From positions 28,789 through 52,788 of the forward strand of contig CAWELU010000018.1 of NCBI GenBank assembly GCA_963809965.1: 24,000 bases of DNA, written 5' to 3'. Positions 4,797 through 22,780 of this stretch are shown one piece after another; positions within the stretch are counted from its first letter, which is position 1, and each line of letters starts with the position of its first letter. Position numbers and translations under genes: made by a program. Source of the DNA: an uncultured beta proteobacterium. Its GTDB lineage: Bacteria; Pseudomonadota; Gammaproteobacteria; Burkholderiales; Casimicrobiaceae. A model generated the notes under the pieces. It was given only the letters and a program-made list of their open reading frames with translations. It did not search any database and had not been told where the DNA came from.

Positions 4797-4935
4797 GAGA
4801 TTCTCCTCGAGTGAGCTTGGCTCGTCTCGCCGATCCCAGCCGCAGGACAGGACACTCACGGTGCAGCGCAAAGCTCCTATCAGGTCACTGACGCCGGGCC
4901 CGGCAACGCACGGGTGGTCGGCGACAATTATCTTG

Positions 4936-6838
4936 GCCGGCGTATTGCCTCACCAGAAAATGTTACTCCAGGGTGGTTGTCGCGTGTTTTGTCTTTCAAC
5001 AACGCTTTTCCCGCCGCGATGTGCAGGATTTGTCGTCGAATCCGATGTCGTTGTTGGTCTGCGTTGCACGACGCGTGCGCTCGATCGCAATCGACACGCG
5101 GGTGCGATGCGATGCGCATGGACGTTTTGCGGTGATGGTTGATGCCAAGGCGGGCGAACAAATCGCGTGTAGGCCGTTCTAGACGCCCCGATCTGGTGCA
5201 TGAGCGCCAAGAGGGCGACGATTCGTCCCATGCTGCTCGATTTCAATGCGCGCTCCTGTTCGCGTTCGCGTGAAGTTCGGTGGGCCGCAGCGTTCCGAAA
5301 ATAAGTTGCTTGGTCTGTTCGCTGCGCCACGCTTTCACTCGTCGCTGCAGCGTGCATAGCTGCGCCGTCGTCGAGTAGACATCGGGCATCATCGCAGCAA
5401 GCCGATGCATCAATTCTTTCGCACTCACCCCGGGATCGCTCTGCAGCCATTGCTCGACGGTGGGCCAAGTATGTTCAAACGGATCTGCGCGGCTTCGCCA
5501 CCAACGCGGCGCGGTCGCCCGACGCCGATGCGTCGGTCGCGATTCGCCGCTCTTCCAGGCGGTAGCAAGGCCGCGTACGAAGGCGTCGATATCATGCCCA
5601 TCCCCCGGTATCTGGCTAGGCGCGGAGCCGGTGGTCGCGAAGGCTGCCAGTTGCTCTTGCGCTATTCGGATTTCATGCAGCAGCGCCACCGGATCGAGGT
5701 TCGAGCATAGTTGCCGCAATTGCGCCGCGCCCGCGTCGTCGAGGCAGCCCGAAGCCAGCAGCCGCTCGCATGGCGTCGCCGGAGCCGAGTAGCGTTTGGT
5801 CACACGGGAACCCTCGCGGATCTTTGCGATGAGCTTGAACGACGGCTGAAAGAAGTTCACGTACAGTCGCGTAACGGCATAGAGCCGCGCCAGCGCCGCG
5901 GTGGCTTCCCGTCCCTGCAGTCGCCCATAGCCCACCAGACGGCGCACTACCGATCCATTCTTCTGCTCCACCCAAGCCTGGTCGTTCTTGCGATAGGGGC
6001 GCGAGCGCGTGAACTGCAAATCGTGGGCCCGGCAATAGTCGACTACCGTATCGTTGATGAACGCGCTGTCGTTGTCACCGTTGACCCCGTGCAGCGGGAA
6101 TGGCAGCTCAGCGCGTACGTGGGCAAAGCCCTCGATCACCAGGGTCTGTTCCCGCGCCGGCAGGGCGACGCATTCGGTCCAACCCGAGGCCACATCGGTG
6201 AGTACCAGGCTGTGCACGAACGTCCCTTCGGCCACCCCGCCACAATGCTCGACAAAGTCTATCTCGAAGAAACCCGGCTTGACGTCCTTCCAGTCGGCAA
6301 AGGTGCGGATCGGAATGCTCTTGCGCAGCGCGGAGTTGATCGCGCCCCGGTGCCGGCGACCAGCGAACCCTTCCCGACGCGTGGACTCGAGCAGGCGGTC
6401 AATGGTTGCCGTACTCATCGCCAACAAACGCTGCCGCACGCCGGCGTCCAGCGCGAGATGCCCATGGCGTTCCATCGCCCCGATCAGCAGCGGCTGCGCC
6501 GCCTTGAGTCGTTTGCTGCAAATCCGGTCAGCCGCTTCCCACAGAATGATCAGCGCCTGCCGAACCGCCTCGTCGTAGACACGCTCACGCGGTCGCCTCT
6601 CCGTCCGCTTGGCCGCATTGCCATTCAACACGCGAATCGCGTGCTTTCGGTGATACCCGGTAAGCCGCACGAATTCCTCGAGGATCTTCGGCTTCTCCTT
6701 GCCGCTGCTCGCACGATAGCGCTGGCCCACTCCTTCGATCAATTCCTTGCGCGTCGCCATGCTCAGTCGCCTCCGCATTTGGTGCCCCCGGCGTCCGTTC
6801 CGACGGGTAGCAAAATACGTGAGGCACGGCCCGACCCT
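4936..6838 (-). mobile_element. Putative IS carrying the 511-aa transposase; ends tentative
   Basis: The motif GTAGCAAAATACGTGAGGCA (6807-6826) lies upstream of the transposase start. An inverted, imperfect copy lies at ~4939-4966 (reverse complement GTAACATTTTCTGGTGAGGCA). A third direct copy at 7991-8010 suggests the true outer end lies beyond the IS630 insertion. Confidence 0.4.
5243..6778 (-). CDS. DDE transposase with N-terminal HTH and central rve/integrase-core domain (ISNCY/IS481-like; family not resolved), apparently intact
   Basis: 511-aa ORF (505 aa from the second ATG at 6760, which is preceded by GGAGG). N-terminus: MATRKELIEGVGQRYRASSGKEKPKILEEFVRLTGYHRKHAIRVL. Candidate DD35E triad: FFEIDFVEH, GVNGDNDSAFIN, and 35 residues further AWVEQKNG. 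Confidence 0.8.
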   Translation of the reverse strand: MRRRLSMATRKELIEGVGQRYRASSGKEKPKILEEFVRLTGYHRKHAIRVLNGNAAKRTERRPRERVYDEAVRQALIILWEAADRICSKRLKAAQPLLIGAMERHGHLALDAGVRQRLLAMSTATIDRLLESTRREGFAGRRHRGAINSALRKSIPIRTFADWKDVKPGFFEIDFVEHCGGVAEGTFVHSLVLTDVASGWTECVALPAREQTLVIEGFAHVRAELPFPLHGVNGDNDSAFINDTVVDYCRAHDLQFTRSRPYRKNDQAWVEQKNGSVVRRLVGYGRLQGREATAALARLYAVTRLYVNFFQPSFKLIAKIREGSRVTKRYSAPATPCERLLASGCLDDAGAAQLRQLCSNLDPVALLHEIRIAQEQLAAFATTGSAPSQIPGDGHDIDAFVRGLATAWKSGESRPTHRRRATAPRWWRSRADPFEHTWPTVEQWLQSDPGVSAKELMHRLAAMMPDVYSTTAQLCTLQRRVKAWRSEQTKQLIFGTLRPTELHANANRSAH

Positions 6839-6839
6839 A

Positions 6840-7988
6840 GTGCTTACCCAACTTAATATGCCTAGGATGTGGTATCCTGCCGTACCTGTCGAGCGCCAGG
6901 AGGTGCAGGATGCCCCGATCGCTGCAGCTGCGTTCGCTCTCGCGGTCCGAGCGGCGTGTGCTGGACCGCAAGCTCAAGGATCTGTCGCTGGCAGCACGCG
7001 TCCACCAGCGATACCGGGCGATCGCCGAAGTCGCCAAAGGATGGACCATTCTCGAAGCGGCCGACCGCGTTGGCTGCCACTTCACGGTGGCATACGACTG
7101 GGTCCACCGCTTCAACGACAGCGGTTTTGCGACCTTCGAGCAGGTGGCCAACCCCAAAGGCCGGCCGGCGATCTTGCGCGCGGAGCAATTGCGCGACCTG
7201 GTCGAGGTGGCGCTGTCCAATCCCAGCGAACGGGGACTGCCGTTTTCCAATTGGTCGGTGCCGAAGCTGGCCGAGTACTGTCGCGGCAAGGGGTTGCTGC
7301 CAGAGGTGACCGATGAATGGGTCCGCCGACTGTTGCGGCGTGAAGGGCTCAGCGCCCAACGCATCCGGACTTGGAAGACCTCGAACGATCCGCGCTTCGA
7401 CGCTAAAAAAAACGCATCCGCCGCCTCTACCGCACCTGTCCGCCGCGCGCCGCGGTAGTGTGCTTCGACGAATGGGGACCGCTCGAGCTGCGCCCCATCG
7501 GCGGGGTAGCCTGGGCCAGGCGCAAGCACCCCGTGCGGCAGCGGGCGACGTACCGCCGCTTGCAGGGCACCGAGCAGTTCTTGGGCTTCTACGACGTGCA
7601 CGCCGACTGCTTGGAGGGACTGTTCTCCAAACACAAGCGCGTGGTCGACATCTGCCAAGCCTTCAAACGCTTGCGCGCGTGCTACCCGCGCCGGCCCCTG
7701 TACGTCATCTTGGATAACCTGCACAACGTCCACGACCACCCTACGGTACTCACCCTCATGCGCACACTGCACATCCATCCAGTGTGGACACCGACCGAGG
7801 CTTCGTGGCTGAACTTGATCGAGCCCCAGTTCGGCGTCCTCAAGCGCTTCACCGTCGCCAATACCGACGATTCCGCACACGTGGTCCGGCGGCGGCGGAT
7901 CTATCGCTACCTGCGCTACCGGCACCAGAAAGTCGGAACCGAAGATCATCCGCTACGCCGTATTAGGATGGTTAAGTTGGAACAGCAC
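6840..7988 (+). mobile_element. IS630-family element, complete, with TA target duplication
   Basis: Terminal inverted repeats: GTGCTTACCCAACTTAATATGCCTA at 6840, against the reverse complement of the right end, GTGCTGTTCCAACTTAACCATCCTA. TA is present at 6838-6839 and at 7989-7990. The 1149-bp size is typical. Confidence 0.85.
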
Positions 7989-7991
7989 TAG
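6910..7991 (+). CDS. IS630-family DD35E transposase in two overlapping frames (6910-7458 and 7458-7991), joined by a -1 shift in an A8 run
   Basis: The upstream frame holds the HTH region (...GWTILEAADRVGCHFTVAYDWVHRFNDSGFATFE...). Reading -1 from the run aaaaaaaa at 7405-7412 gives FDAKKKRIRRLYRTCPPRAAVVCFDEWGPLE..., continuous with the catalytic part (VCFDEWG, YVILDNLHNVHD, SWLNLIEPQF with D-35-E spacing). Confidence 0.8.
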
Positions 7992-8007
7992 TAGCAAAAA
8001 TCATGAG

Positions 8008-8778
8008 TCAATGCGGGGTGCCACTGGGCGGTGTCGGCGGCCGACCGCGCGGAGGTTTGCCATTCTTCTTCGCCCGTCGCGCCGCCAGCTTGGCAGCGTA
8101 GGCGGCCTCAGCTTCGGCCTTGACCCGCGCCTCGATCTTCGCCTTGGCCGCGGCAATCGCCGCCAAGCGCTCTTCTCTGCGGCGCAACTCTTCGGGCAGG
8201 CTCATGCCCTCCGGCAAGTCCTTGGCGTTGGCCGCCTCCGCCCGTTTCATCAGCTCCGCCACCTCGGCCTTGAGCTTGGCCTCCAGCTTCTTGGCGTGGC
8301 CGTAACTCATGGCGCTGTGGCGCGAGGCGTTGGCATGCACCTTGGTCCCGTCCATACTCACCGTGCCCAGCTTCAACATGCCCACCTCGCGGGCGTAGCC
8401 CAGCACCTGGACGAAGATCGCCTCGATCTGCTTCAGGAAACGCTTGCGGAAACTGTTGATGGTGTCGTGATCCGGATGGGTGTTCGCCGTGACGTAGCGA
8501 AAAGCGATCGAGTCATAGCTCGCCCGTTCCAAGGCCCGGCTGGAGAACGTCCCGGTGGCATAGCCATAGAGCAACAGCGCCACCAGCATCGCCGGGTGGT
8601 GGGCATCGCTGCCGCGACCGGCATAGCTTTGCTCGAGGCCCGACAAATCCAGTTGCTCGACCACGTCGACCACGAACCGCGCCAGATGATCTTCCGGCAG
8701 CCACTCCTGCACGCTCGGCGGAAACAGAAACTGCGTATCGCGATCAACCGGAACAAAGCGCGCCATGAATTCACTCAC
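8008..8778 (-). pseudogene. IS1182-family (IS5-superfamily) transposase, N-terminal ~250 aa only
   Basis: MARFVPVDRDTQFLFPPSVQEWLPEDHLARFVVDVVEQLDLSGLEQSYAGRGSDAHHPAMLVALLLYGYATGTFSSRALERASYDSIAFRYV...LGTVSMDGTKVHANASRHSAMSY, then a Lys/Ala/Glu coiled-coil and a PPRGRPPTPP linker. The DDE domain that should follow is missing. The ORF stops inside the 7991-8010 repeat next to IS630. Confidence 0.75.
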
Positions 8779-8855
8779 CGAAAGACATCAATGCAATCCA
8801 GTGTAGTCAAGATTTCCAGAAACGAAAGTCCGACAGGCTGCTAGGATCGTCCGAA

Positions 8856-9791
8856 TCATTCGGATGCGTTCAGCCAGCTCATGACCCGTGGCCACAACGT
8901 CTCGCGAAAACGCGTTCGAAAGAACCCAAAGTGCCCAACCTTCTGGCCGCCAACATCAACTGGCCCAATCGCGACTTGAACTGCCGGCGCGTTTGCATAA
9001 AGTCCCAGAATACGGTCGGTCGCTGCTTGCGTTGCAAACGGATCGTCATCGAAGCGAAGCGCGAGGGTTTGTCCAGTAATCGCGCGAAACCGTGCTAGCA
9101 GGCTGGCTATCAACGTCAAGTCCAGCGATCCATCTGGGCGCTTAAGGTACCACCAGAAATCGGGCTTCCGCCGACGTGCCCAATCAAGCGCGACACCTTT
9201 TGGGAGGTCTTCTAGCAGGTGAAGGCGTCGACCAGGAAAGTAGCCGCAAACATGCGTGATCACTGGCATCAATGCATGCCATAGTACGAACATGGAAAGG
9301 CGCGTACCGGATGCATAGTCGCGCCAATATCCGGTATGAGCACTAACCAGCAACATCCGATCAATCTTGCCGCCATTCGGGGCAAAACCGGTCACAAACC
9401 CGCCCACGCTATGTCCCACCACAAGCATTTTCGCCCCAAAAAACCGGCTTGAAACCCACTCGAGAACGGCGGCACAATCCTTGCTTCCCCACTCCTCAAC
9501 CGAGGCTTGAAATCCAATTAACGTGCGGGGTCGGGACCCCCCAATTCCACGGTAGTCGTAAAGTATGGTCGGGATACCGTTGCCAGCGAGGAATGCCGCA
9601 AACCGGTCATAGTACGAATGTACAATGCCTGCGCCAGCATTCACTATCGCCGCATGCCCTACGGGGCCGCTCCGGTTACCGGTCCATAGGCGGACTGCGA
9701 GAGGGAAACCATCGCTCGCGCGTAGTGTAAAGTTGTGCTGAGATACTGAGGCAATATCGGCAGCATGCGTTCTGTCTTGGAGAGTTGCCAC
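8856..9791 (-). CDS. Alpha/beta-fold hydrolase (Ser-Asp-His type), function unknown
   Basis: 311-aa ORF with a GTG start. It has the nucleophile elbow GHSVGG, a candidate acid in RFDDDPFA and a candidate His in KVGHFGFFR. The YDYRGIGGS segment is typical of the fold. Composition is more AT-rich than the core genes. Confidence 0.8.
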   Translation of the reverse strand: MATLQDRTHAADIASVSQHNFTLRASDGFPLAVRLWTGNRSGPVGHAAIVNAGAGIVHSYYDRFAAFLAGNGIPTILYDYRGIGGSRPRTLIGFQASVEEWGSKDCAAVLEWVSSRFFGAKMLVVGHSVGGFVTGFAPNGGKIDRMLLVSAHTGYWRDYASGTRLSMFVLWHALMPVITHVCGYFPGRRLHLLEDLPKGVALDWARRRKPDFWWYLKRPDGSLDLTLIASLLARFRAITGQTLALRFDDDPFATQAATDRILGLYANAPAVQVAIGPVDVGGQKVGHFGFFRTRFRETLWPRVMSWLNASE

Positions 9792-9820
9792 GGGGCAAAC
9801 TGGGTTAATCGCGAAATACT

Positions 9821-12049
9821 TTGTACATGAAGTTTACGCATATCCGCGACCGTTTCGAAGTGCCGCTACGACTGGCGCATTGCTGGCTCACGCGCGACGG
9901 TCTCAATTCCTTGGTTGAGGGGACCCATCGGCCGGAACTCGAGCAATCCCTGCTTCGCGTGATTATCGGAGGCCTCGTCCTTGGATACCTTTTTATCCAC
10001 GCGTTTCGCGATGGAAGCATTGCTGGCCATGAAACGGAAGTTCTCGGCGTTGCGGTAACGTTTTTCCTTTTTTCGATCGGACTTACTGCCCAAGTACTAA
10101 CATCACACCCCATCTCGGTCGTGCGTCGATTCGTCGGGATGGTTGCAGATAACGCAGCCACGTCCTACTGCCTCATACAGACGGGCGAAGCTGGTGCTGT
10201 CATTATCGGTGTATATCTGTTCGTGACATTCGGTAATGGGTTCCGTTATGGACGGAAGTACCTTCACGCGTGTCAAGTAATGAACCTCGCCGGGTTTGCC
10301 TTGGTAATCCTTCTAAGTGACTATTGGCATACGCAAATTTCGCTCAGCGTTGGGCTTGCAATATCAATGACCGTGCTTCCGTTTTACGTTGGCGTGCTTG
10401 CGCAACGAATAACCGAAGCAAGAAAACGTGCTGATGAGGCGAACCAAGCAAAAGGGCGGTTTCTTGCAAACGTAAGCCATGAAATGCGTACGCCATTGAA
10501 TGGCGTAATCGCAATGACGGACGTTCTGCGCGAGACGACTCTCAACGAATCGCAGTGCGAAATTGTGGACACCCTGGGTACCTCCGCTCAGCTGCTGCTT
10601 GTGCAGATTGAGGACGTGCTCGATATGTCCAAGATCGAGGCAGGACGCGTCCAAATTGAATTGCGACCGTTCGACCTCGGGAGCCTAATTACTGGGACAG
10701 TGAAGGTTATCCTTCCACAGGCACGCTATAAAGCGCTTAATATCAATACCGAAATCGCTGACAATGCGACGCGCTGGTTCGTCGGTGATGGCCATCACAT
10801 CCGGCAGGTCTTGCTAAATCTCCTATCGAACGCAGTTAAGTTTACAGAGCGCGGTGAGATACTATTGCGAGTGACCGTTGTTACGGAGGATACTGCGCGG
10901 TCGTATGTCCGCTTCGAGGTAAAGGATACCGGGATCGGAATTCCTTCTTCGAAGCAAGCCGTAATTTTCGAACCGTTTACTCAGGCGGACGATTCAATCA
11001 CTCGCGTCTACGGCGGTACCGGGTTAGGCACGACTATCGCGCGCCAGCTCGTCACACTTATGGGTGGCCAGATCGGGCTGGAAAGCACGGTCGGCATTGG
11101 GAGCCTTTTCTGGTTTGAGTTACCGCTTCGACGTAGCGAACCCGTTGGAATCGACCTATCGTCGGAACTCACGGCAACAACCAAGCTTTCCTATGGCGCA
11201 GCGTCCCTCGCTGCTCAGCAACCCACAAACGTTACGAAGATCCGTGGTGCTCGCATTCTCGTCGCGGAAGACAACACGACGAATCAGCGCGTCACGCAAC
11301 TTATACTTGAGAGTGGTGGGCACCGCGTCACTATCGTAGACAACGGTGATGCAGCCCTTGACCTACTTGAACGAGCTAGTTTTGATCTTGCTTTCTTCGA
11401 CCTCTCGATGCCAGGAGTTAGCGGACTCGAAGCATTGAAGCTCTACAGATTCACGACAGACAAACCAATTCCGGTTGTGATCCTTTCAGCGAATGTTACT
11501 ACGGACATGGTCGCTCAATGCCAAGTGGCAGGGGCTGTCGAGTTCGTCGCAAAACCAGTTCGTGCCACGATCTTGCTCGATGCAGTCGAGCGGCATCTTT
11601 CTTCAAGAGCAAAGGAGTTCCAATCGAGTGTTCAACTTCCTCGAGTCGATGAACGCCCAGTGCTTACTATTGTCGAGACACCGGTGGTAGATCCTGCCGT
11701 GCTTGCTGATCTTGGCCAGCTCTCCACGGATCCAACATTCGTCGAGCGCCTTGTCCGCGGCTTTCATTCTGATGCAGAACGTCTGGTTGAAACAATCAGT
11801 GCGGCACTGGCTGCCCGTAGGTACGAGGAGGTCAAAGACGCTGCGCACGCCCTTAAAGGTGGCGCCGGCAGCGTGGGAGCAACTCAGCTAGTCACATTGG
11901 CCCTGCGATTTGAAAGGGCGACGCACGGCATGCTTCGCCTAAAGGCGAGCACGTGGACGGAAGAACTTGTATGCGCGACAGATGAAGTCTTTGCGGCACT
12001 AGAGACTCATCTTGAAGAGCGCCGACATAGGCAGTCGTACTCTTCGTAA
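9821..12049 (+). CDS. Hybrid sensor histidine kinase, RpfC-like architecture: multi-TM sensor, HisKA, HATPase_c, receiver, HPt
   Basis: 742-aa ORF; the likely start is the ATG at 9827 (MKFTHIR). The N-terminus (aa ~40-200) has several hydrophobic helices, including HRPELEQSLLRVIIGGLVLGYLF and VTFGNGFRYG. The H-box is SHEMRTPLNG and the G-boxes are DTGIGI and GGTGLG. The receiver reads RILVAEDNTTNQRV...DLAFFDLSMPGVSG...VVILSANVT...FVAKP. The HPt reads AAHALKGGAGSVGA. Confidence 0.9.
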   Translation: MYMKFTHIRDRFEVPLRLAHCWLTRDGLNSLVEGTHRPELEQSLLRVIIGGLVLGYLFIHAFRDGSIAGHETEVLGVAVTFFLFSIGLTAQVLTSHPISVVRRFVGMVADNAATSYCLIQTGEAGAVIIGVYLFVTFGNGFRYGRKYLHACQVMNLAGFALVILLSDYWHTQISLSVGLAISMTVLPFYVGVLAQRITEARKRADEANQAKGRFLANVSHEMRTPLNGVIAMTDVLRETTLNESQCEIVDTLGTSAQLLLVQIEDVLDMSKIEAGRVQIELRPFDLGSLITGTVKVILPQARYKALNINTEIADNATRWFVGDGHHIRQVLLNLLSNAVKFTERGEILLRVTVVTEDTARSYVRFEVKDTGIGIPSSKQAVIFEPFTQADDSITRVYGGTGLGTTIARQLVTLMGGQIGLESTVGIGSLFWFELPLRRSEPVGIDLSSELTATTKLSYGAASLAAQQPTNVTKIRGARILVAEDNTTNQRVTQLILESGGHRVTIVDNGDAALDLLERASFDLAFFDLSMPGVSGLEALKLYRFTTDKPIPVVILSANVTTDMVAQCQVAGAVEFVAKPVRATILLDAVERHLSSRAKEFQSSVQLPRVDERPVLTIVETPVVDPAVLADLGQLSTDPTFVERLVRGFHSDAERLVETISAALAARRYEEVKDAAHALKGGAGSVGATQLVTLALRFERATHGMLRLKASTWTEELVCATDEVFAALETHLEERRHRQSYSS

Positions 12050-12053
12050 GCAT

Positions 12054-12072
12054 CCCCCGGCAGAGCCGGGGG
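12054..12072 (+). terminator. Candidate rho-independent terminator after the hybrid kinase
   Basis: 8-bp GC stem cccccggc / gccggggg with loop aga, starting 5 nt after the stop codon. It is followed by cttt, which is only a weak U-tract. Confidence 0.5.
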
Positions 12073-12110
12073 CTTTAGATTGTGGGCCGCTCAAAGGGGC
12101 ATGGTGGAGT

Positions 12111-12216
12111 TGACCTGCCTGCGGATTTCGGACGCTTTATTCCTGGAAAGCAACTCGTGGTTGAGGGAACGACGTGGACGGATGGTGCTGCTTGAATTCG
12201 ATCGGGGTCAAGTAGT
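12111..12216 (+). mobile_element. IS3-family copy C: left IR, 5' UTR and first ~12 codons of orfA
   Basis: 12111-12150 (tgacctgcctgcggatttcggacgctttattcctggaaag) matches the copy A left end 2163-2202 at 30 of 40 ungapped positions. The putative orfA ATG at 12182 is 71 nt from the terminus (68 nt in copy A). The fragment stops at the IS256-type IR at 12217. Confidence 0.55.
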
Positions 12217-12246
12217 TCCGTAAGCTTCCCCGTCAAGTAGACAGTT

Positions 12247-12435
12247 CTAAACTGGAGTTTCCGCGGCGAGCAGCTGCTCGCGGTAGCGCGCTGGCGGCAG
12301 GCTCCCGAGCGCGTCGTGCGGCCTGATTTCGTTGTAGCGCTCGAGCCATTCGGCCGTGATCTCCCGGACCTCGTCGAGCGAGTCGAACAGGTGAGCGCTC
12401 AGCACTTCTTCGCGGTAGGTGCGGTTGAAGCGGCG
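12247..12435 (-). pseudogene. IS3-family orfB C-terminal fragment (last ~62 codons)
   Basis: RRFNRTYREEVLSAHLFDSLDEVREITAEWLERYNEIRPHDALGSLPPARYREQLLAAETPV*. This is the conserved end of IS3-group integrase-core proteins. Everything upstream is replaced by an oppositely oriented fragment. Confidence 0.7.
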
Positions 12436-12798
12436 GACTTCTGCGTCGACGCGCTGCACGAGGCCTTGCGCCGTTACGGCACGCCGGAGATCTTCAACAC
12501 CGATCAGGGCAGCCAGTTCACCAGCGACGACTTCACCGCGGGGCTCAAAGACGCTGGCGTGCGCATCAGCATGGACGGTAAAGGCCGCTGGGTCGACAAT
12601 GTCTGCGTCGAGCGGCTGTGGCGCAGCGTGAAGTACGAAGAGGTGTATCTGCACGCCTACGCCTCGATCGCCGAAGCGAACCGGCGGCTGGCGATCTACT
12701 TCGATTTTTACAATCGCATCCGCAGCCATCAGTCCTTGGACGGCATGACCCCCGACGCCGTCTACTTCGGCTCCGATGCCATGAGAGTCGCGGCCTGA
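12436..12798 (+). pseudogene. IS3-family orfB C-terminal fragment (~120 codons) of a different IS3 subgroup
   Basis: FCVDALHEALRRYGTPEIFNTDQGSQFTSDDFTAGLKDAGVRISMDGKGRWVDNVCVERLWRSVKYEEVYLHAYASIAEANRRLAIYFDFYNRIRSHQSLDGMTPDAVYF. This covers the second D and the E region of a DDE integrase core. A possible right terminus ...gtccaatca ends at 13048. Confidence 0.75.
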
Positions 12799-13048
12799 AC
12801 CGTCCATGCACCAAGGTTGGGCACCAGGAGGGTCTACAAGCGCGTCGACGCAGGTCCGAGGTCATTGGGTACCTCCCATTCGCGTCGCGCAACCCCGTTC
12901 ATCGTTCGTCGTCCCGCGCAATAATAATCGTGCGTCGAGTTTCCCACTGCGTCGCGCGCTCGTATGCGTGGCTTGCGCCACGCGCGCGCCGCCGTGGAAA
13001 ACTCTTGCGCAGTTCATCACTTATCCGACCCGAATTTCTGTCCAATCA

Positions 13049-13277
13049 GACGGGGCCAGCTCTCCGTGCGCTCGGGCAGGTGGCCGTTGCGCACCAGCCG
13101 CGCCCGACCGACCGCATCGCGCTTATCGACATGTCCCGCCAGGAACTCGGCCACCTCCGCTTCGATCGCCTGCGCCAGCAACGTCCGAGCTCCCTCTCGC
13201 AGCACTTCGGTCAACGCGTCCCGAACCTCGTTCGGCACCGCTGGATTCTTCAACGCAAAAACGTTATCGTGACTCAC
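13049..13277 (-). pseudogene. IS256-family transposase (copy 2), N-terminal ~75 codons
   Basis: The GTG start at 13277 is preceded by AAGGAG. It reads VSHDNVFALKNPAVPNEVRDALTEVLREGARTLLAQAIEAEVAEFLAGHVDKRDAVGRARLVRNGHLPER, then AGPV in an adjacent frame. It is cut at 13048/13049 by an IS3-type end. Confidence 0.7.
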
Positions 13278-13406
13278 GGCGTATTCACTCCTTTGCAAAA
13301 AGGTTGATGATCTTGGTCGACCATCAAGAATACGCCGCCCTCTCATTTCAGGTCATCCACAACTTTCGAGCATAGCTCTGTCTACCGGGAGGGGAAGCTT
13401 ACGGAG

Positions 13407-13626
13407 ACGTTCAATGGCTCGTACCGCGACGAGTGCCTGAACGTCCATTGGTTCGAAACCATGGAGGAAGCGAAAGCGATCAGCGAGGCCTGGCGCCGGG
13501 ATTACAATGAGACTCGGCCGCACATGGCTCTCAACGACCGAACACCAGAGGAGTACGAGCGCCAATCCGGCGCTCGGAACGCCGAAAACTAACTCTCAAA
13601 ACAGTCCGAAAAACCGAAGCGGCTCA
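13407..13626 (+). pseudogene. IS3-family copy C: last ~61 codons of orfB (to 13592) plus the right IR
   Basis: TFNGSYRDECLNVHWFETMEEAKAISEAWRRDYNETRPHMALNDRTPEEYERQSGARNAEN* with stop at 13590-13592. The downstream sequence gtccgaaaaaccgaagcggctca resembles the reverse complement of the 12111 left IR (gtccgaaatccgcaggcaggtca). Confidence 0.65.
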
Positions 13627-13739
13627 CCTGGTGTGACCTACGAAGCACCAGGTGTCCAGAGATTTTGGGGCAACTCCACGTGCTTACACCTTTGCGCTTG
13701 GTCCCGATTCAGGTCGATAGGTCGCGATACCTGCCGCCA

Positions 13740-14483
13740 ATGTTACTTCCGCTAGTAGAAGCAGCGGAATCCGGCACTGATCTGGTCCCCGCTGTGTTGG
13801 CTATAGTGTGCAAGCTAGGTTTTGATAGCTTCATGTACGCCACTGCAAACTACCACCTGCGACCAAACAATGACGAACGGATGTACGTATTTACAACACT
13901 GCCGACTGAGTGGGTAGCCCGTTATGATCAGATGGCGTATGTCGAGTGTGACCCGCGGGTCTTGTACTCCTTTGAAAGCGCTTTACCTTTAGTCTGGGAT
14001 CACGCGAGTGAACGCGGCAAGAGCGCCAAAACAGATCTGTTTCTCGAAGACGCCGCCAATTATGGTGTAGCGAGTGGCGTGGCATTTCCGGTCTACACTG
14101 GGTACCCAGCGAGGAATATTGTTGCATTAAATTCGTCGGTGCCGATAATCGATACTGTCCGACGATCAGAAATCGTTCGCAATCTTGGCGATATCGTGCT
14201 CTTTGGTCAGTACTTTCACGAGCTGTTTGTCAAGGGTGTAATCGAAAAAGGGATGGCCCCGCACTTTCAAGGCGCTCCATTGAGCGCACGTGAGCGCCAA
14301 TGCTTACAGATGGCTGCCAATGGTCTTACAAGTTCCGACATCGGTATGAAACTGGGAATATCAGAACGCACAGTCACTTTTCATTTTGCAAACATCATAA
14401 GCAAACTGGGGGTTCTAAACCGCCATGAAGCGATTGCCACCGGTGTCGCTAAGGGCATTATCCGTGTCACGACCGCGCATTAG
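13740..14483 (+). CDS. LuxR-family transcriptional regulator: autoinducer-binding domain plus GerE-type HTH, with no adjacent luxI (LuxR solo)
   Basis: The frame is open from 13665, but the ATG at 13740 gives a typical 247-aa LuxR. Relative to TraR numbering the invariant residues align: W57/Y61 (WVARY), D70-P71 (ECDP), W85 (PLVW), the G113 region (YGVASGVAFP), and E178/L182/G188 (RERQCLQMAANG). The HTH reads SSDIGMKLGISERTVTFHFANIISKLGVLNRHEAIA. This is the most AT-rich gene in the window. Confidence 0.85.
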   Translation: MLLPLVEAAESGTDLVPAVLAIVCKLGFDSFMYATANYHLRPNNDERMYVFTTLPTEWVARYDQMAYVECDPRVLYSFESALPLVWDHASERGKSAKTDLFLEDAANYGVASGVAFPVYTGYPARNIVALNSSVPIIDTVRRSEIVRNLGDIVLFGQYFHELFVKGVIEKGMAPHFQGAPLSARERQCLQMAANGLTSSDIGMKLGISERTVTFHFANIISKLGVLNRHEAIATGVAKGIIRVTTAH

Positions 14484-14521
14484 GGTGCCTTCTACACGAT
14501 TGCAACAAGCAATAACTTTGG

Positions 14522-14530
14522 AGCGGCCAT
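14522..14530. repeat. Target-site duplication (left copy) of the IS4-family element
   Basis: agcggccat lies directly before the left IR. An identical 9-mer lies at 15856-15864, directly after the right IR. Confidence 0.9.
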
Positions 14531-15855
14531 CAGTAGTGTCCCAACGTTTTCTACGGGACGGCTCATAAGCCAAAGAACTGAAAGCGCTTTTTCATGATTT
14601 TGCTTGTTACCGACTTGAACCGCGGAAGCAAGGTTTGCGACCCTGCGAGGCAATCCATCGCGGGAGCAACGGATGTACGCAGGCAAGCTGGTGTTTGCGC
14701 AAGTCATGGAGCATCTGCCGCTGCACACCTTTCGCCGAATCGTCAGCCGCTATGCGGGCGAACGGAAGGTGAAGTCGTTCTCGTGCCTGGATCAGTTCCT
14801 GTGCATGGCGTTCGCACAGCTGACTTATCGCGAGAGCCTGCGCGATATCGAAGCCTGTCTGCGCGCGCAGCGCTCCAAGCTTTATCACCTTGGGATTCGG
14901 TCGGCGGTAGCGCGCAACACACTCGCCAACGCCAATGCCGTGCGCGACTGGCGCATCTACGCCGACTTCGCGCAGAGCCTGATCGCCATCGCCCGACCGC
15001 TGTATGTCGACGAGCCCTTTGGTGTCGATTTGAAGGAGTCGGTCTACGCCTTGGACACGACGACCATCGATCTGTGCCTGTCGGTGTTTTCGTGGGCACC
15101 CTTTCGCTCGACCAAGGCGGCGGTCAAACTGCACACGCTGCTCGATCTGCGCGGCAACATCCCGACCTTCATCCACATCAGCGACGGCAAGATGCACGAG
15201 GTCAACATCCTCGACCAGTTGTTGCCCGAGCCGGGTGCCTTCTACATCATGGATCGGGGCTTTCTCGACTTCGAGCGGCTGTACCGCTTTCACGAAGCCG
15301 GCAGCTTCTTCGTCACGCGCGGCAAGTCGAATCTCAAGGTCCAACGGCGCTACTCGCATGCGGTCGACCGCGCCACGGGGCTGATCTGCGACCAGACCGT
15401 CTTCCTCACGGGCTTCTACTCGCGCAAGGGCTTCGAGGCTCCGATGCGGCGCATTCGATTCAAGGATCCCGAGACCAACAAGACGCTGATCTTTCTCACC
15501 AACAACTTCGCCCTGCCGGCGCTCACCATCACCGAGCTTTACCGCTGCCGCTGGCAGGTCGAGCTGTTCTTCAAATGGATCAAGCAACATCTTCGGATCA
15601 AAGCCTTTTTCGGTACCTCGGAGAATGCCGTCAAGTCGCAGATCTGGATCGCGGTGTCCGTTTACGTCCTGGTGGCCATCGTCAAGAAACGGCTGCGCCT
15701 GCCGGCCAGCCTCTACGAAATCCTACAGATCTTGAGCCTGACCATGTTCGAACGAATCCCCTTGGATCAATTGCTTGCGCAAGCCGTGACCGATGACATG
15801 GGCCGCATTTCCGATAAGCAACTGATCCTGTTCGAATAACGTTGGGACACTACTG
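14531..15855 (+). mobile_element. IS4-family element, complete (1325 bp)
   Basis: Perfect 18-bp terminal inverted repeats: CAGTAGTGTCCCAACGTT at 14531-14548 and its reverse complement at 15838-15855. There is a 9-bp direct duplication agcggccat on both sides and a single intact transposase ORF. Composition is host-like, inside AT-richer DNA. Confidence 0.9.
14673..15839 (+). CDS. IS4-family DDE transposase (N-terminal DUF4372-like region plus DDE_Tnp_1-like core)
   Basis: 388-aa intact ORF. MYAGKLVFAQVMEHLPLHTFRRIVSRYAGERKVKSFSCLDQFLCMAFAQLTYRESLRDIEACL...ALDTTTIDLC...FYIMDRGFLDFERL...YRCRWQVELFFKWIKQHLRIKAFFGTSENAVKSQIW is a typical IS4-type YREK/DDE region. Confidence 0.9.
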   Translation: MYAGKLVFAQVMEHLPLHTFRRIVSRYAGERKVKSFSCLDQFLCMAFAQLTYRESLRDIEACLRAQRSKLYHLGIRSAVARNTLANANAVRDWRIYADFAQSLIAIARPLYVDEPFGVDLKESVYALDTTTIDLCLSVFSWAPFRSTKAAVKLHTLLDLRGNIPTFIHISDGKMHEVNILDQLLPEPGAFYIMDRGFLDFERLYRFHEAGSFFVTRGKSNLKVQRRYSHAVDRATGLICDQTVFLTGFYSRKGFEAPMRRIRFKDPETNKTLIFLTNNFALPALTITELYRCRWQVELFFKWIKQHLRIKAFFGTSENAVKSQIWIAVSVYVLVAIVKKRLRLPASLYEILQILSLTMFERIPLDQLLAQAVTDDMGRISDKQLILFE

Positions 15856-15864
15856 AGCGGCCAT
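15856..15864. repeat. Target-site duplication (right copy) of the IS4-family element
   Basis: agcggccat, identical to 14522-14530. Confidence 0.9.
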
Positions 15865-15909
15865 CAAGAAATACCCGGCTTACTTGGTCAAGGCAAGTGG
15901 TACCGACGA

Positions 15910-17019
15910 TCAATCCGCGAGCTGGGTATAGATCGCGTCGATCTTTAGTCGGTCCGCCAGGAATGCGTCCACGCATTTCGGGTCGAAGTGCTTCGCGCGC
16001 TGGCTCTTCAGGAATTCGATGCCTTCGTCCACCGGCCACGCGTGCTTGTACGGCCGCTCGCTGACGAGCGCATCGAAGACGTCGGCGACGGCGACTACGC
16101 GAGCGACGATTGGAATGTCCTCGCCGTGCAACCCGTTCGGGTAGCCGGTTCCATCGAATTTCTCGTGGTGCCCGAGCGCGATGATCGCCCCCATGCTCAG
16201 GTATTTCGATGGACTCCCTTTGAGAATGTCGTAGCCGATGCGTGGGTGGGCGCGCATCGTTTCCTGCTCGGACGCGCTGAGCGGTCCTTCCTTCAGCAGC
16301 ACGCTGTCCGGGATGCCGATCTTGCCGATGTCGTGCATCGGTGCCGCGACTTCGAGGACGTGGACGGTTTCGCCGCCCAGCCCCAGATGCTGGCCGATAA
16401 GCCCGGAATATTTCGCCATCCGCACCAGGTGATTGCCGGTCGTCTTGTCGCGGAATTCACCGGCCTTGGCGAGCTTCGACAACGTCTCCAACTCACGCTC
16501 GTGTATCTCGGCAACAGACTTGTCGACCTGGTACTGCAGCACGCGCGCCTGGTCGGACAGTACGATCTTGTGCCGGCGCAGCTCGAGCAGATTTGCGCAA
16601 CGGGCGCGCGTTTCGTGCTCGTCCAACGGCTTGATTAGGAAATCGGTAGCTCCCGCTTCGAGCGCGTCGTACCGGACGCGCCGGTCGTCAACCACGGTGA
16701 TCACGACGATCGGCACGTCGACGCAATGCGGCAAACCGCGGATCTGCTTGACCAGCTCGATGCCGTCAAACTCTGGGAGCTTGTAGTCGGTCAGCACCAT
16801 GTCCACGCGGTTATGCCGCGCGAATTCCAGCGCGCGGCTCGGCGTGTCGAAGAGCTCGAGGTTGAGCTTGCCGTCGATCTGCCTCACGATCTCCGCCAGC
16901 AGCAACCGGCTGCTGAACAGGTCGTCGACGATGACCACGGTGTTGCGTTGTGCTCGCGCGAGCGCGAGCTCGGAGATGACGCCGGTGAGGGTCGCGTGGC
17001 GTGGTTGGGCAGCGGACAT
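15910..17019 (-). CDS. Response regulator with HD-GYP output domain (RpfG-like, predicted c-di-GMP phosphodiesterase)
   Basis: 369-aa ORF; GGAGAG precedes the ATG at 17019. The receiver reads VVIVDD...MVLTDYKLPEFDG...FLIKP. The HD-GYP region reads APMHDIGKIGIPDSVLLKEGPLSASEQETMRAHPRIGYDIL...ALGHHEKFDGTGYPNGLHGEDIPIVARVVAVADVFDALVSERPYK. Confidence 0.9.
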   Translation of the reverse strand: MSAAQPRHATLTGVISELALARAQRNTVVIVDDLFSSRLLLAEIVRQIDGKLNLELFDTPSRALEFARHNRVDMVLTDYKLPEFDGIELVKQIRGLPHCVDVPIVVITVVDDRRVRYDALEAGATDFLIKPLDEHETRARCANLLELRRHKIVLSDQARVLQYQVDKSVAEIHERELETLSKLAKAGEFRDKTTGNHLVRMAKYSGLIGQHLGLGGETVHVLEVAAPMHDIGKIGIPDSVLLKEGPLSASEQETMRAHPRIGYDILKGSPSKYLSMGAIIALGHHEKFDGTGYPNGLHGEDIPIVARVVAVADVFDALVSERPYKHAWPVDEGIEFLKSQRAKHFDPKCVDAFLADRLKIDAIYTQLAD

Positions 17020-17204
17020 GGATTCTCTCCCCCGGGCGTACTACGTAACGCCTTGACTACGCAAGAAACATGCCCTCGATCCCGATTGGATTAATTCCGC
17101 ATCGCGACCGGACGGCAGATCGCTACCTTGTTACAAGCGGTCCTGTCCCAGAAGAAGGGCATCCGGTTCGGTGCTGTGGAGGGCCGCCGTGAGCAAGAAA
17201 CACA

Positions 17205-17237
17205 AGAGGCCGGTCCGGGACTCCGGAACCGGCCTCT
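17205..17237 (-). terminator. Candidate terminator downstream of tRNA-Pro
   Basis: Long interrupted hairpin: agaggccgg (17205-17213) pairs with ccggcctct (17229-17237), with an inner stem tccgg/ccgga. On the minus strand it is followed by ttgtgtttctt. Confidence 0.5.
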
Positions 17238-17243
17238 ATATTG

Positions 17244-17320
17244 TGGTCGGGGCGAGAAGATTCGAACTTCCGACCCCCTGCACCCCATGCAGGTGCGCTA
17301 CCAGGCTGCGCTACGCCCCG
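17244..17320 (-). tRNA. tRNA-Pro, anticodon GGG
   Basis: The minus strand reads CGGGGCG TA GCGC AGCCTGGTA GCGC A CCTGC ATGGGGT GCAGG GGGTC GGAAG TTCGAAT CTTCT CGCCCCG ACCA. This is a 77-nt cloverleaf with a 7-bp acceptor stem, a TTCGAAT T-loop, encoded CCA, and anticodon loop AU-GGG-GU. Confidence 0.93.
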
Positions 17321-17345
17321 ACGTGAAATGAAAATTATAGCCGGA

Positions 17346-17780
17346 TCAGCGATCATGGCCTAGTAGCTGACGTATTTTCTCCAGTTCGTGCCGGATTTCG
17401 GCGGCGCTGAGCGGCACCGTCGGTGCAACGGACTGCGCGGAATCTTCGCCGGACGGCCGCATTCCAGCCGGTTCATACCGTGCCGAGCTTGGCCCCTGCG
17501 CCGCGATCTCCGAATCGAGCCGGTGTCGCGCGCCGTTGATCGTGAACCCCTGCTCGTAGAGCAGGTCGCGGATGCGACGAATGAGCAGGACTTCGTGATG
17601 CTGGTAATAGCGTCGATTGCCGCGACGCTTCACCGGTTTCAGTTGTGTGAATTCCTGCTCCCAGTACCGGAGCACGTGCGGCTTGACTGCGCAAAGGTCG
17701 CTTACCTCGCCGATCGTGAAGTACCGTTTGGCGGGGATCGGCGGCAGCTCGACTTGGTTAGCTCGGCTGTGTTCCGGCAT
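17346..17780 (-). CDS. MerR-family transcriptional regulator (the conserved gene that follows ihfA)
   Basis: 144-aa [69 protein letters not shown] is a MerR-type winged HTH. It overlaps the ihfA 3' end by 23 nt. Confidence 0.8.
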
Positions 17781-18066
17781 GGTTCGCTGCTTCGACCATG
17801 GCCTTCAGTTTCTGGCTCGCGTGGAAGGTGACGACACGCCGGGCCGTGATCGGGATTTCCTCGCCGGTTTTCGGATTGCGCCCCGGGCGCTGCGGCTTTT
17901 CGCGCAGCTGGAAATTGCCGAAGCCGGACAGCTTGACGCTGTCTCCACGCTCGAGCGCGATCCGGATCTCCTCGAAGAAGTGCTCGACCATGTCCTTGGC
18001 TTCGCGCTTGTTTAGGCCGAGCTGCTCGAAAAGCAAGTCGGCGAGTTCGGCTTTGGTGAGCGTCAT
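17758..18066 (-). CDS. ihfA: Integration host factor alpha subunit
   Basis: The 102-aa [92 protein letters not shown] carries the IHF-alpha signature. It lies directly after pheT. Confidence 0.92.
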
Positions 18067-18074
18067 CGGAGATC

Positions 18075-20452
18075 CTACTGGCGGAGCGTGGCGCCGAACT
18101 TCTCGAACAGCACGCGCAGCAACTGGGCTACGGTAGCGTCGATCTCGGCGTCCGTCAAAGTACGTTCAGTATCCTGCATAAGCACCAGAATCGCAAGGCT
18201 TTTCTTTCCGGCACCGATCCCGGGTCCCCGATAGACGTCAAAGAGGCGGAACGCTATCCACCCGGGCCGATCGTGCCTCTTCGAGGGCCCGCAGAACTTC
18301 CCGGGCCGGCAGAGCGTCATCGACGACCACGGCGAGGTCGCGGCGGACAACAGGAAATTTCGAGACCGGTCGCGCCACGGGAAGCGGTCGCGACAGGAAT
18401 GGCGACAGCTCCACTTCGAACAGGGTCGGGGCGCGCGGCAGAGCGAAGTGCTTGACCAGACGCGGGTGCAATTCGCCCAGCCACCCGACGGCTGCGCCGC
18501 CAACGCTTACGCGGGCCGATCGCCCCGGATGCAGGATCGGGTGTTCAGCGCGATCCGTGGTGAGTAGCTGCGGGGCGGCCAATGCCTCGAGGTCCCCCTT
18601 GACGTCGAAAAGGTCGACCTCGCGCCGGGGTACGCCCCATTGCTCGGGATTGGCATCGCCATACGCAAGCCCGCCGATGCGCAGCGGTTGATCGTAATGA
18701 CCGTCCGCCCGCAGGAAACAGCGTCCGACCTCGAACACGCGGAGGCGGTCCTGCTTTCGCGCGAGATTGGTACCCAGCACCTCGATGAGGCCCCCGGCGA
18801 GCGTCGTGCGCATCACGTCGAGGTGGCTGGCGATCGGGATTCAACACCGCGATCGGCGCCGAACGCGCGTCGCGCCCCTGGAAGAGTGCGGCCTCCCGCT
18901 CCGAGCTGACAAACGTAAAGGTGATCACTTCCTGCCAGTCGCGCGCGGCGAGGCGGTGTTTGAGCCCGCTGGCCGTCGCCTTGGCTTCCGGTTCGGCGAG
19001 CATCGCCTGCACGTGGGCGGATGGCACCGCAGGAATGGCGTTGTATCCCCACAGGCGCGCGATTTCCTCGATGAAATCTTCCTCGATCGCGAGGTCGAAG
19101 CGATAGGAGGGTGGCATGACGAGGAAATCTTCACCCGTGCGCGCGCACTCGAGACCGAGTCGGTCGAGGAGTTCTTGGATCGTGTTGCTCGGGATGCCGA
19201 CTCCGAGCAGTCGGGCGACACGAGCCGGTCGCACCCGCACCGGATCGCGCCTCGGTAGGTTGCCCACCGATGTCGTCGAGCGGACCCGCGCGTCCACCGC
19301 AGAGCTCGATGATCAACTGGGTCGCGCGCTCGACAGCACGCGCCGCGTTGCGCGAAATCCACACCTCGCTCGAAGCGAAAGCCGGCGTCGCTGACGAACC
19401 CCAGCCGCCGCGACTTGCCCTGGATAACGACGGGATTCCAGAACGCGCCTTCGAGAAGGACCGTCGACGTCGTGTCGCTGATCCCGGAATGCTCGCCCCC
19501 CATGACGCCGGCCAGACCGAGCGGTTTCCGCTCGTCCGCGACCAGCAGCAGGTCGGGCTCCAGATCGAGCGTCTGCTCGTTGAGCAAGGTCAGCTGCTCA
19601 CCCGGGCGCGCGAAGCGGACCACGATGGCGCCTTCGAGCAGCCGATCGTCGTACGCGTGCAGCGGCTGACCAAGCTCGAGCATCACGTAGTTGGTGACGT
19701 CTACGACGGCCGAGATCGATCGGATGCCGCTGCGTTCCAGCCGTTCCCTCATCCATGGCGGGGTTGGCGCGCGCGGATCGATCGCCTCGATCGTGCGCGA
19801 GACAAAGCGCGGACAGGCGTCCGGATCCTCGACCCGAACGGGACGTCTCGCCGACGCTTGCGACCGGCGTCGCGCCGAATGCCGGAATCCTGAGCGGTGC
19901 GCGGGTAATGGCTGCGACCTCACGGGCGATGCCGACCAGTGAAAGGCAATCGGCCCGGTTGGGAGTCAGCTTGAGCGTTATCAGCGTGTCGTCGAGCGCG
20001 AGCACCACGCGAACATCCGCGCCGACCTCGGCATCGGCAGGCAACGCGAGCAATCCGGACGCATCGTCGGCGATACCGAGTTCCGCTGCCGAGCAGAGCA
20101 TCCCCTGTGACTCGACACCTCGCATCGAGACTGCCTTGATCGAGAGTCCGCCGGGCAGCCGGGCGCCGATCGTCGCGCAGGGCGCCTTCATGCCGACTGC
20201 GGCGTTCGGCGCGCCGCAGACGATCGGGAGCGGCAACGGACCGCCGATGTCCACCGTGCACACGCGGAGCCGATCGGCTGACGGGTGAGGCTCGATTCTC
20301 GTGATCCGTCCGACGACGACTCCTGCAAACGGCGGCGCGGCCCGCACGGCGTCCTCCACCTCGAGTCCCGCCATCGTAAGCGCGTTGCACAACGCGGCGG
20401 TGTCAAGCGGCGGATCGACCAGCGTTCGGAGCCAGCGTTCGGAAAATTTCAT
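18075..20452 (-). pseudogene. pheT: Phenylalanine--tRNA ligase beta subunit, colinear but broken by five frame shifts (genuine decay or sequence errors)
   Basis: Six consecutive ORF pieces join into a full PheT. They run [12 protein letters not shown]...[23 protein letters not shown] / [65 protein letters not shown] / RNAARAVERATQLIIELCGGRAGPLDDIGG / LPRRDPVRVRPARVARLLGVGIP...YRFDLAIEEDFIEEIARLWGYN / ASHLDVMRTTLAGGLIEVLGTNLARKQDRLRVFEVGRCF / [43 protein letters not shown]. Breaks lie near 19843, 19350, 19264, 18835 and 18262. Confidence 0.9.
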
Positions 20453-20464
20453 CGCTGCGCCTCG

Positions 20465-21526
<1,062 letters not shown>

Positions 21527-21545
21527 TCATTTTTCCGCTGGCTGA

Positions 21546-21902: not shown

Positions 21903-21917
21903 GGTCCGGTGCCTCCC

Positions 21918-22115: not shown

Positions 22116-22126
22116 GAACCCGTCCC

Positions 22127-22726: not shown

Positions 22727-22780
22727 CGCTGTGTCTCCCAGTGAACGAAAAACAAACCGTGCAACCCGTTGCGCGCCATC

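Follow-up and report, generated by a model that had tools for sequence, protein, structure and literature searches.

A response regulator, a sensor kinase and a quorum-sensing receptor encoded side by side with no signal synthase raise the question of whether they form a new kind of receptor module or are what remains of a known system. Such a set of genes lies in a stretch of 24,000 nucleotides (hereafter the window) of contig CAWELU010000018.1, from the genome of an uncultured beta proteobacterium of the Casimicrobiaceae. The original prediction, made from the DNA alone, described four genes, coding for an alpha/beta hydrolase, an RpfC-like hybrid kinase, a LuxR-type receptor and a regulator combining REC and HD-GYP domains, and considered that together they might be a module for eavesdropping or signal integration. 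A Pfam profile scan confirmed all four, at the coordinates and with the domains that had been proposed (Table 1). Our analyses indicate that the locus is very probably a quorum-sensing (rpf) cluster of diffusible signal factor (DSF) type, belonging to an uncultured soil betaproteobacterium, that was rearranged by insertion sequences (IS) and lost the synthase gene rpfF from this site. It is a known system in damaged form rather than a receptor module of a new type, and the remaining genes represent an apparently intact DSF sensing arm devoid of its synthase. None of the four genes has a frameshift or a truncation, and their catalytic and phospho-acceptor residues are all kept.

We analysed the kinase by comparison with RpfC from Xanthomonas campestris pv. 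campestris (Xcc). Its N-terminal ~195 residues match no Pfam family and contain five hydrophobic segments according to Kyte-Doolittle hydropathy, which predicts a five-transmembrane (TM) input domain (residues 42-60, 72-90, 115-133, 146-164 and 173-191) behind a short N-terminal tail of ~41 residues. HisKA, HATPase_c, REC and Hpt domains follow in the order found in RpfC, with the phospho-accepting residues His218 (HisKA), Asp525 (REC) and His674 (Hpt), all three invariant in an alignment of homologues (alignment A1). The best solved-structure match of the REC domain is that of Xcc RpfC (3m6m_D, E 1.7e-23). With this Xcc fragment as the query, a set of full-length proteins was fetched from a library of 1.8 billion proteins. 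We took this set to be RpfC because its REC domains are anchored by 76% identity to that of 3m6m_D and because the top full-length match, P0255, carries R15, D17, S18, E19 and Q22, the residues of Xcc RpfC that are essential for DSF sensing (PMC5391125). The N-terminal 200 residues of the window kinase alone matched twelve Xanthomonadaceae RpfC representatives with BLASTP E values of 6e-27 to 1e-9, and hhalign aligned the input domains with a probability of 99.9% (E 2e-33). Over their full length, these proteins align collinearly with 31-38% identity. Domain order, the five TM segments and input-domain homology all bear out the proposed likeness to RpfC, and the sensor groups with RpfC rather than with unrelated hybrid kinases; we thus regard the window kinase as a true RpfC homologue. 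Its own homologues include hundreds of proteins with 65-82% identity, many of them labelled RpfC by JGI. A Rhodanobacter protein (locus L053) considered as a Xanthomonadales RpfC reference was dropped, as its kinase is an MHYT/PAS hybrid kinase.

The tail of the kinase bears on the nature of its ligand. In the ungapped hhalign alignment, Glu37 and Gln40, both invariant in the kinase family, pair with E19 and Q22 of Xcc RpfC, and Thr33, Arg35 and Pro36 fall at the positions of R15, D17 and S18. A gap of two residues would align the RPELEQ motif of the kinase with RPDSEHGQ. As only E19 and Q22 of the five contacts are conserved in the ungapped alignment, the cognate ligand may differ from DSF.

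The response regulator has the architecture of RpfG, namely a REC domain with an acceptor aspartate (Asp78) fused to an HD-GYP domain, in which the HD and HHExxDGxGYP motifs read HDIGK and HHEKFDGTGYP. Its gene is 80-90% identical to that found at the same position beside tRNA-Pro in relatives, and it lies 3.9 kb from the kinase gene in the window, on the opposite strand. Among related loci with enough room upstream of the kinase, 31 of 49 have an HD-GYP gene there. This linkage, together with the architecture, supports the initial assignment to RpfG. From the linkage we infer that the RpfC homologue would transfer phosphate to the RpfG homologue and that the latter would hydrolyse cyclic di-GMP (c-di-GMP).

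The nearest named relatives of the window belong to the Casimicrobiaceae and to metagenome-assembled genomes labelled 'uncultured beta proteobacterium'. In one of them (locus L001; kinase 72% identical) the gene order is thrS, infC, rpmI, rplT, pheS, pheT, ihfA, merR, rpfG (forward), hydrolase (reverse), kinase (forward) and crotonase (reverse). The L001 crotonase is much closer to Xcc RpfF (3m6m_A, E 4.8e-59) than to ordinary enoyl-CoA hydratases (1e-13), and it retains both catalytic glutamates, in the motifs FEAAL and PE(I/V)LF. A survey anchored on the kinase yielded 90 loci in which the sensor domain is present in the kinase. An RpfF-type crotonase is encoded downstream of the kinase in 53 of the 56 loci for which at least 1.3 kb of downstream sequence is available, leaving three without rpfF. 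The kinase-RpfF pair is also found in two Methylophilus loci (L010 and L022). The usual cluster of the lineage is thus ihfA, merR, tRNA-Pro, rpfG (forward), hydrolase (reverse), rpfC (forward) and rpfF (reverse), and genes for a LuxR solo, a 3-ketoacyl-ACP synthase III (KAS III) and a fatty-acid desaturase are optional members in relatives. The combination of genes that had seemed unrecognised is therefore familiar, as many related soil betaproteobacteria carry the cluster at the same site, with rpfF. The spacing of rpfC and rpfF varies in two loci: an open reading frame (ORF) between them in L011 (12976-13890) resembles a group II intron reverse transcriptase, judging its translation by eye, and a gap of ~3.4 kb separates them in L105 (4255-7715), compared with 60-120 bp in other loci.

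A crotonase of this kind is absent from the window. Searches by tblastn with seven RpfF-type proteins of relatives returned noise (best E 0.29), and no scanned ORF of the window matched the crotonase (ECH) profile. No remnant of rpfF came to light by tblastn up to E=50, or when the junction segments were compared with all loci by blastn. Similarly, the Pfam Autoind_synth profile found no luxI among the scanned ORFs of the window. The lack of both synthases noted originally was thus confirmed within the 24 kb.

The chromosomal site speaks to the age of the cluster. The hydrolase, kinase and luxR genes have a G+C content of 51-56%, compared with 64-66% in the flanks, and the original prediction had taken them for a compositionally foreign islet. 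The dip is real, but a foreign origin is unsupported, as relatives share both the dip and the site. Thus, the G+C content of the cluster is 5-10 points under that of its flanks in most relatives compared, and the site beside tRNA-Pro, merR and ihfA is occupied in L001, L002, L006, L008, L009, L012 and many metagenome loci. Because relatives show the same dip, the low G+C content characterises the cluster throughout this lineage and is no evidence of recent import; a recent tRNA-linked island, with an empty site in relatives and a deviant composition found only here, is not what we observed. In addition, the spacer between rpfG and tRNA-Pro is conserved in 28 related loci, and the kinase and RpfG co-vary in their identities to the proteins of relatives (Spearman 0.70, n=16). 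Searching a plasmid database with the whole region yielded matches to IS only. The cluster is thus a long-standing resident of the lineage.

The arrangement of the window genes differs from that of relatives. Positions 15932-24000 are collinear with L001 in one orientation (thrS to ihfA, merR and rpfG, at 73-85% DNA identity), and positions 8884-12027, which comprise the hydrolase and the kinase, match L001 in the other. The hydrolase-rpfC block is therefore inverted relative to rpfG. IS-derived DNA had been recognised at 12111-13626 and 14531-15864; it is present, with limits redrawn as shown in Table 1. The IS4-family element is flanked by a 7-bp target duplication (GCGGCCA at 14523-14529 and 15857-15863). 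These duplications and its inverted repeats identify it as a simple insertion into a convergent luxR-rpfG spacer of ~90 bp, and thus the adjacency of luxR and rpfG predates the IS. The IS3-family element, for which no target duplication is visible, fills the place that rpfF has in relatives and cuts the stump of a second IS3-family transposase. On the other side, a fragment of an IS1182-family transposase abuts the 3' end of the hydrolase gene; it is the rightmost part of the IS remnants piled up over 6 kb (2586-8844). A hairpin that follows the kinase gene is probably the rpfC terminator, and homology to relatives stops shortly beyond it. An independent short-read contig of 3267 bp contains the hydrolase and the kinase only. 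It breaks ~30-40 nt past either gene, which is what repeats present in many copies on both flanks would produce.

The simplest history that we can infer starts from an order resembling that of L131 (rpfF, rpfC, hydrolase, luxR, rpfG), followed by inversion of the block and an IS-adjacent deletion of rpfF. A single recombination between two IS copies was considered as the cause of the inversion and found unsupported; as one flanking IS fragment is of the IS1182 family and the other of the IS3 family, at least two events must be assumed. The ~135 nt between the kinase terminator and the IS3 repeat (12082-12216) have no match in relatives and no recognisable coding remnant. This stretch may belong to a repeated element; the short-read contig ends before 12082.

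The hydrolase has a nucleophile elbow (GHSVGG, Ser128), and Asp249/250 and His287 are invariant in its family (alignment A3); it thus keeps a Ser-Asp-His triad. None of its 1900 homologues bears a specific name, and its sequence gave weak matches only among solved structures. The closest solved folds to its AlphaFold2 model (pLDDT 82.9) are monoglyceride lipases and esterases, with a TM-score of about 0.6. A proline iminopeptidase, suggested by analogy with the XccR/OryR-pip pairs discussed below, was rejected: no NCBIfam family matched, the Pfam matches are to generic alpha/beta-hydrolase families and the folds are those of lipases and esterases. We examined 73 metagenome loci anchored on the hydrolase and with at least 500 bp of flank; 72 of them have an rpf gene beside it, a figure that measures linkage and not prevalence among rpf clusters, as the sample was selected on the hydrolase. 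In 48 of 60 hydrolase-anchored loci, the kinase gene is divergent and directly upstream. The hydrolase thus ranks as the fourth conserved member of rpf clusters of this kind, divergent from rpfC, and the suspected tie between hydrolase and signal is strongly backed by synteny. In the window, the divergent hydrolase and kinase genes are ~35 nt apart (9792-9826) when measured from the called start codons, compared with 60-150 nt in relatives. Given so short a distance, the two promoters must share that region or overlap in it. With its predicted fold and a promoter region shared with rpfC, the hydrolase would most likely act in the processing or turnover of the lipid signal.

Other genes of the clusters fit with this theme. 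In L011, the hydrolase, KAS III and rpfF genes form a co-directional string that is probably co-operonic, and the desaturase, KAS III and second hydrolase paralogue encoded in several clusters (Table 1) all point to fatty-acid chemistry. In L001, which among the long contigs is the closest to the window, the hydrolase gene (9028-9849, - strand) is split into three frame fragments. This may be a sequencing error rather than a pseudogene, as the contig name suggests a long-read assembly.

The likely start of the LuxR-family regulator is Met26, at position 13740. Its best solved relatives are RhlR, QscR, CviR and LasR. It comprises Autoind_bind and GerE domains, and residues W58, Y62, D71, P72, W86, G113, E185, L189 and G195 are invariant in an alignment of the window protein with six cluster-linked homologues (alignment A4). 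We take these, from motif spacing and our knowledge of the family, to be the counterparts of W57, Y61, D70, P71, W85, G113, E178, L182 and G188 of TraR. The regulator thus has all nine conserved residues of canonical acyl-homoserine lactone (AHL) receptors, as had been claimed for it. Homologues with 46-55% identity are encoded in 9 of the 90 loci, and inspection of the ORFs beside those of L003, L008, L107 and L131 revealed no luxI. In loci L130 and L131, luxR has the order and orientation of the window, with the genes reading hydrolase (+), luxR (+) and HD-GYP (-). All four window genes are present in both, always with rpfF, and hence their co-occurrence is not restricted to the window.

Like the LuxR solos of the QscR/SdiA type, the window protein is an Autoind_bind-GerE regulator with no adjacent luxI. 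The XccR/OryR regulators of plant-associated bacteria sit beside pip, which codes for an alpha/beta-fold hydrolase, and the window luxR is likewise near a hydrolase gene. Proteins of the XccR/OryR group have substitutions at two of six ligand-pocket residues. In contrast, all six are canonical in the window LuxR, its neighbouring hydrolase matches no proline iminopeptidase model, and the syntenic partner of that hydrolase is rpfC rather than luxR.

We compared the locus with described DSF systems. It shares with the rpf cluster of Xcc the RpfC domain order, the five-TM input domain, homology over the whole length of the kinase and the RpfG-type REC-HD-GYP partner. The internal order of the Xcc operon is rpfG-rpfH-rpfC. 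In contrast, the order here is rpfG, hydrolase, rpfC, the hydrolase gene is divergent to rpfC, and neither rpfB nor rpfH is present. In Xcc, rpfG, rpfH and rpfC form a single operon and rpfF is convergent with rpfC (PMC4504480), as it is in the relatives of the window. The periplasmic tail of the kinase is predicted to be longer (~41 residues, compared with 22 in Xcc RpfC; PMC5391125), and the window further differs from Xcc in having no rpfF and in keeping only the E19 and Q22 contacts in the ungapped alignment. Clusters of rpfF, rpfG and rpfC have been described outside xanthomonads, in Methylobacillus, Thiobacillus, Leptospirillum and Methylophaga (PMC4504480), and such clusters, including those of Acidithiobacillus, have the same three-gene core (PMC4504480, PMC9040811). 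One strain of Leptospirillum ferriphilum, ZJ, has lost rpfF (PMC9040811), which sets a precedent for the window. Thus, rpf clusters outside xanthomonads and the loss of rpfF from a single strain were known already, and the novelty, a modest one, lies in the conserved hydrolase and the LuxR solo as accessory genes. A limited literature search found no description of the hydrolase, a LuxR solo, KAS III or a desaturase as members of rpf clusters, or of the ihfA/tRNA-Pro address, and nothing relevant on quorum sensing in Casimicrobiaceae.

PA1396 of Pseudomonas aeruginosa is an RpfC-like sensor that serves interspecies sensing of DSF and of the Burkholderia diffusible signal factor (BDSF) without RpfF (PMC4504480). 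The window kinase resembles it in having an RpfC-type input domain without a local DSF synthase, and thus in the logic of a listener. However, PA1396 has no Hpt domain and signals to a DNA-binding regulator, whereas the window kinase keeps its Hpt domain and is paired with an HD-GYP regulator. The synthase-less state also differs, being here a recent, IS-associated derivative.

The features of the window and of related loci are listed in Table 1. To the right of rpfG are the genes for tRNA-Pro(GGG), which is the sole match of an Rfam scan of the window, merR, ihfA, pheT, pheS, rplT, infC and thrS.

Table 1. Coordinates of the features of the window and, where a locus number is given, of the clusters of relatives
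Feature	Coordinates	Strand	Remarks
Alpha/beta hydrolase	8856..9791	-	311 aa; Pfam Hydrolase_4/Abhydrolase_6/Abhydrolase_1
RpfC-type hybrid sensor kinase	9827..12049	+	740 aa from ATG at 9827; alternative start 9821; Pfam HisKA, HATPase_c, Response_reg, Hpt
LuxR-family regulator	13665..14483	+	Pfam Autoind_bind and GerE
RpfG-type response regulator	15910..17019	-	369 aa; Pfam Response_reg and HD_5/HD
IS1182-family transposase, N-terminal fragment	8008..8778	-	Pfam DUF772; NCBIfam IS1182, 195 bits, model 3-234 of 488
G+C-rich hairpin with T-rich tail	12054..12072	+	5 nt past the kinase stop; terminator scan
IS3-family element	12217..13405	-	40-nt inverted repeats, 78% complementary; rve_3/IS3 matches for ORF 12247-12807
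C-terminal stump of second IS3-family transposase	13404..13592	+	frame translation (…ETFNGSYRDECLN…RPHMAL…); cut by left-hand element
IS4-family element	14530..15856	+	19-nt perfect inverted repeats; DUF4372 and DDE_Tnp_1; NCBIfam IS4, 263 bits, above cut-off
tRNA-Pro(GGG)	17244..17320	-	ARAGORN and Rfam
merR	17346-17780		Pfam
ihfA	17758-18066		Pfam
Desaturase	L131 3433-4611		between rpfC and hydrolase
KAS III	L011 15715-16839
KAS III	L155 13669-14763
KAS III and second hydrolase paralogue	L129 3111-4238 and 1224-2195
etfA/acyl-CoA dehydrogenase flank	L011 18128-21990; L146 12828-14627; L003 20246-22152

The pheT gene (18075-20452, - strand) has five reading-frame changes relative to that of L001, with junctions away from homopolymer runs. 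Either an essential gene has become a pseudogene here, or the assembly contains a local error. The nearby pheS, thrS, infC and rpf genes are intact. The left part of the window contains the end of etfA and the gene of a 600-aa acyl-CoA dehydrogenase (1-2147), followed by the IS pile. In several relatives, too, these two genes lie no more than a few kb from the rpf cluster (Table 1); they constitute a second conserved neighbourhood with a fatty-acid theme. The IS pile includes an IS256 fragment (2886-3818), an HTH_Tnp_1 ORF (3692-4213), an ORF in which an N-terminal part of IS110 type is fused to a C-terminal part of IS3 type (4200-4871) and a 511-aa ORF with an rve domain (5243-6778), preceded by a 370-aa ORF (6837-7949) without a Pfam or NCBIfam match.

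Several observations weigh against the interpretation of the locus as an rpf cluster that lost its synthase. No remnant of rpfF survives to prove its former presence here, and the absence of the gene covers a 24-kb window of a 120-kb contig in a multi-contig genome, in which rpfF may exist elsewhere. The frame changes of pheT raise the possibility of a local assembly error in the same window. R15, D17 and S18, three of the five residues with which Xcc RpfC contacts DSF, are not conserved in the ungapped alignment. The inverted block is bordered by IS of a different family on either side, and any sequence of events is conjectural. Finally, the hydrolase was found in three of ~33 kinase-anchored genomes, and its strong linkage was counted in loci chosen because they have it. 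Nevertheless, the idea that gave rise to this work, a purpose-built orphan module for eavesdropping, on an acquired islet at tRNA-Pro and never linked to a synthase, is highly improbable. It would account for the lack of rpfF and luxI in the window, for the G+C content below that of the flanks next to a tRNA gene and IS elements, and for four genes that are intact and full-length relative to their homologues. However, it is largely refuted by synteny, as the same genes are found with rpfF at the same tRNA-Pro/merR/ihfA site in many relatives. In those relatives the cluster likewise has a lowered G+C content, the IS4 element entered a luxR-rpfG pair that already existed, in a simple and clean insertion, and loci without rpfF are exceptional (3/56).

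That the system is complete, the same IS-mediated rearrangements having carried rpfF to another part of the genome and the cell still making its own signal, is a possibility that we entertain tentatively. The block beside the expected position of rpfF is inverted, the IS copies around it could carry segments off, and rpfC, rpfG and the hydrolase gene are intact, as expected of a circuit in use. Yet rpfF was not sighted directly, none being present within the 24 kb, and the intactness of the genes may just mean that the event was recent, as the perfect IS4 repeats and the target duplication suggest. Conversely, the genes left after the loss of rpfF might be disused and bound to degrade, as the heavy IS load across 2.6-15.9 kb and the broken operon geometry, with rpfG and rpfC on opposite strands and 3.9 kb apart, could indicate. 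The four genes show no frameshift or truncation, however, and with all catalytic and phospho-acceptor residues in place, we consider decay unlikely. It is very unlikely that the inversion and the rpfF gap are unreal and result from a mis-join of the assembly at repeated IS copies. The sequence is not error-free, as the five frame changes of pheT show, and the repeats that flank the hydrolase-kinase block broke the independent short-read assembly, which hence provides no confirmation of the joins. However, such an artefact would need a mis-join at both ends of the block plus a deletion of rpfF, whereas the IS4 insertion is internally consistent, with matching target duplications, and the window genes other than pheT are intact. 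We therefore retain the interpretation of the locus as an IS-rearranged rpf cluster without rpfF.

By homology with the Xcc pathway (PMC4504480, PMC5391125), a mechanism can be proposed for this cluster. A cis-2-unsaturated fatty acid would bind the N-terminal tail and the five-helix input domain of the RpfC homologue, and phosphate would then be relayed along His218, Asp525 and His674, in this order, until it reaches Asp78 of the RpfG homologue, whose HD-GYP domain would degrade c-di-GMP and lower its level. The hydrolase would release, tailor or turn over the lipid signal, and the LuxR solo would contribute an AHL-type input. In the window strain, the IS4 element made a clean insertion into the luxR-rpfG spacer, the block of hydrolase and rpfC underwent inversion, and nested IS3-family DNA took the place of rpfF. 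Without a local rpfF, the cell would depend on a relocated synthase or on the DSF of its neighbours. The orphan state is a derived one, resulting from a loss associated with IS, and not an architecture designed for the eavesdropping suggested originally, although the genes that survive could still make the cell a listener.

The main message of the window is a corrective one: what looks like an 'orphan' module is a known system in rearranged form. To our knowledge, work on DSF signalling has dealt almost exclusively with xanthomonads, Burkholderia and a few pathogens. The loci described here show that rpf clusters form a large family among uncultured soil betaproteobacteria. These clusters have a fixed place in the chromosome and a conserved fourth gene, coding for a lipase-like hydrolase, as well as recurrent lipid-tailoring genes and LuxR solos. 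It is possible, if speculative, that the hydrolase is a dedicated and hitherto undescribed component of DSF signalling in soil Betaproteobacteria that matures, releases or quenches a lipid-esterified signal, that the LuxR solos wire AHL signals into the c-di-GMP circuit, and that the window strain is a listener without rpfF. Should the signal prove to be a substrate of the hydrolase, an enzymatic step new to DSF biology would be added. A strain whose sensor arm is intact and which has no local synthase offers a natural case for the study of signal cheating or eavesdropping, and its locus is also a case of how insertion sequences take apart a communication system.

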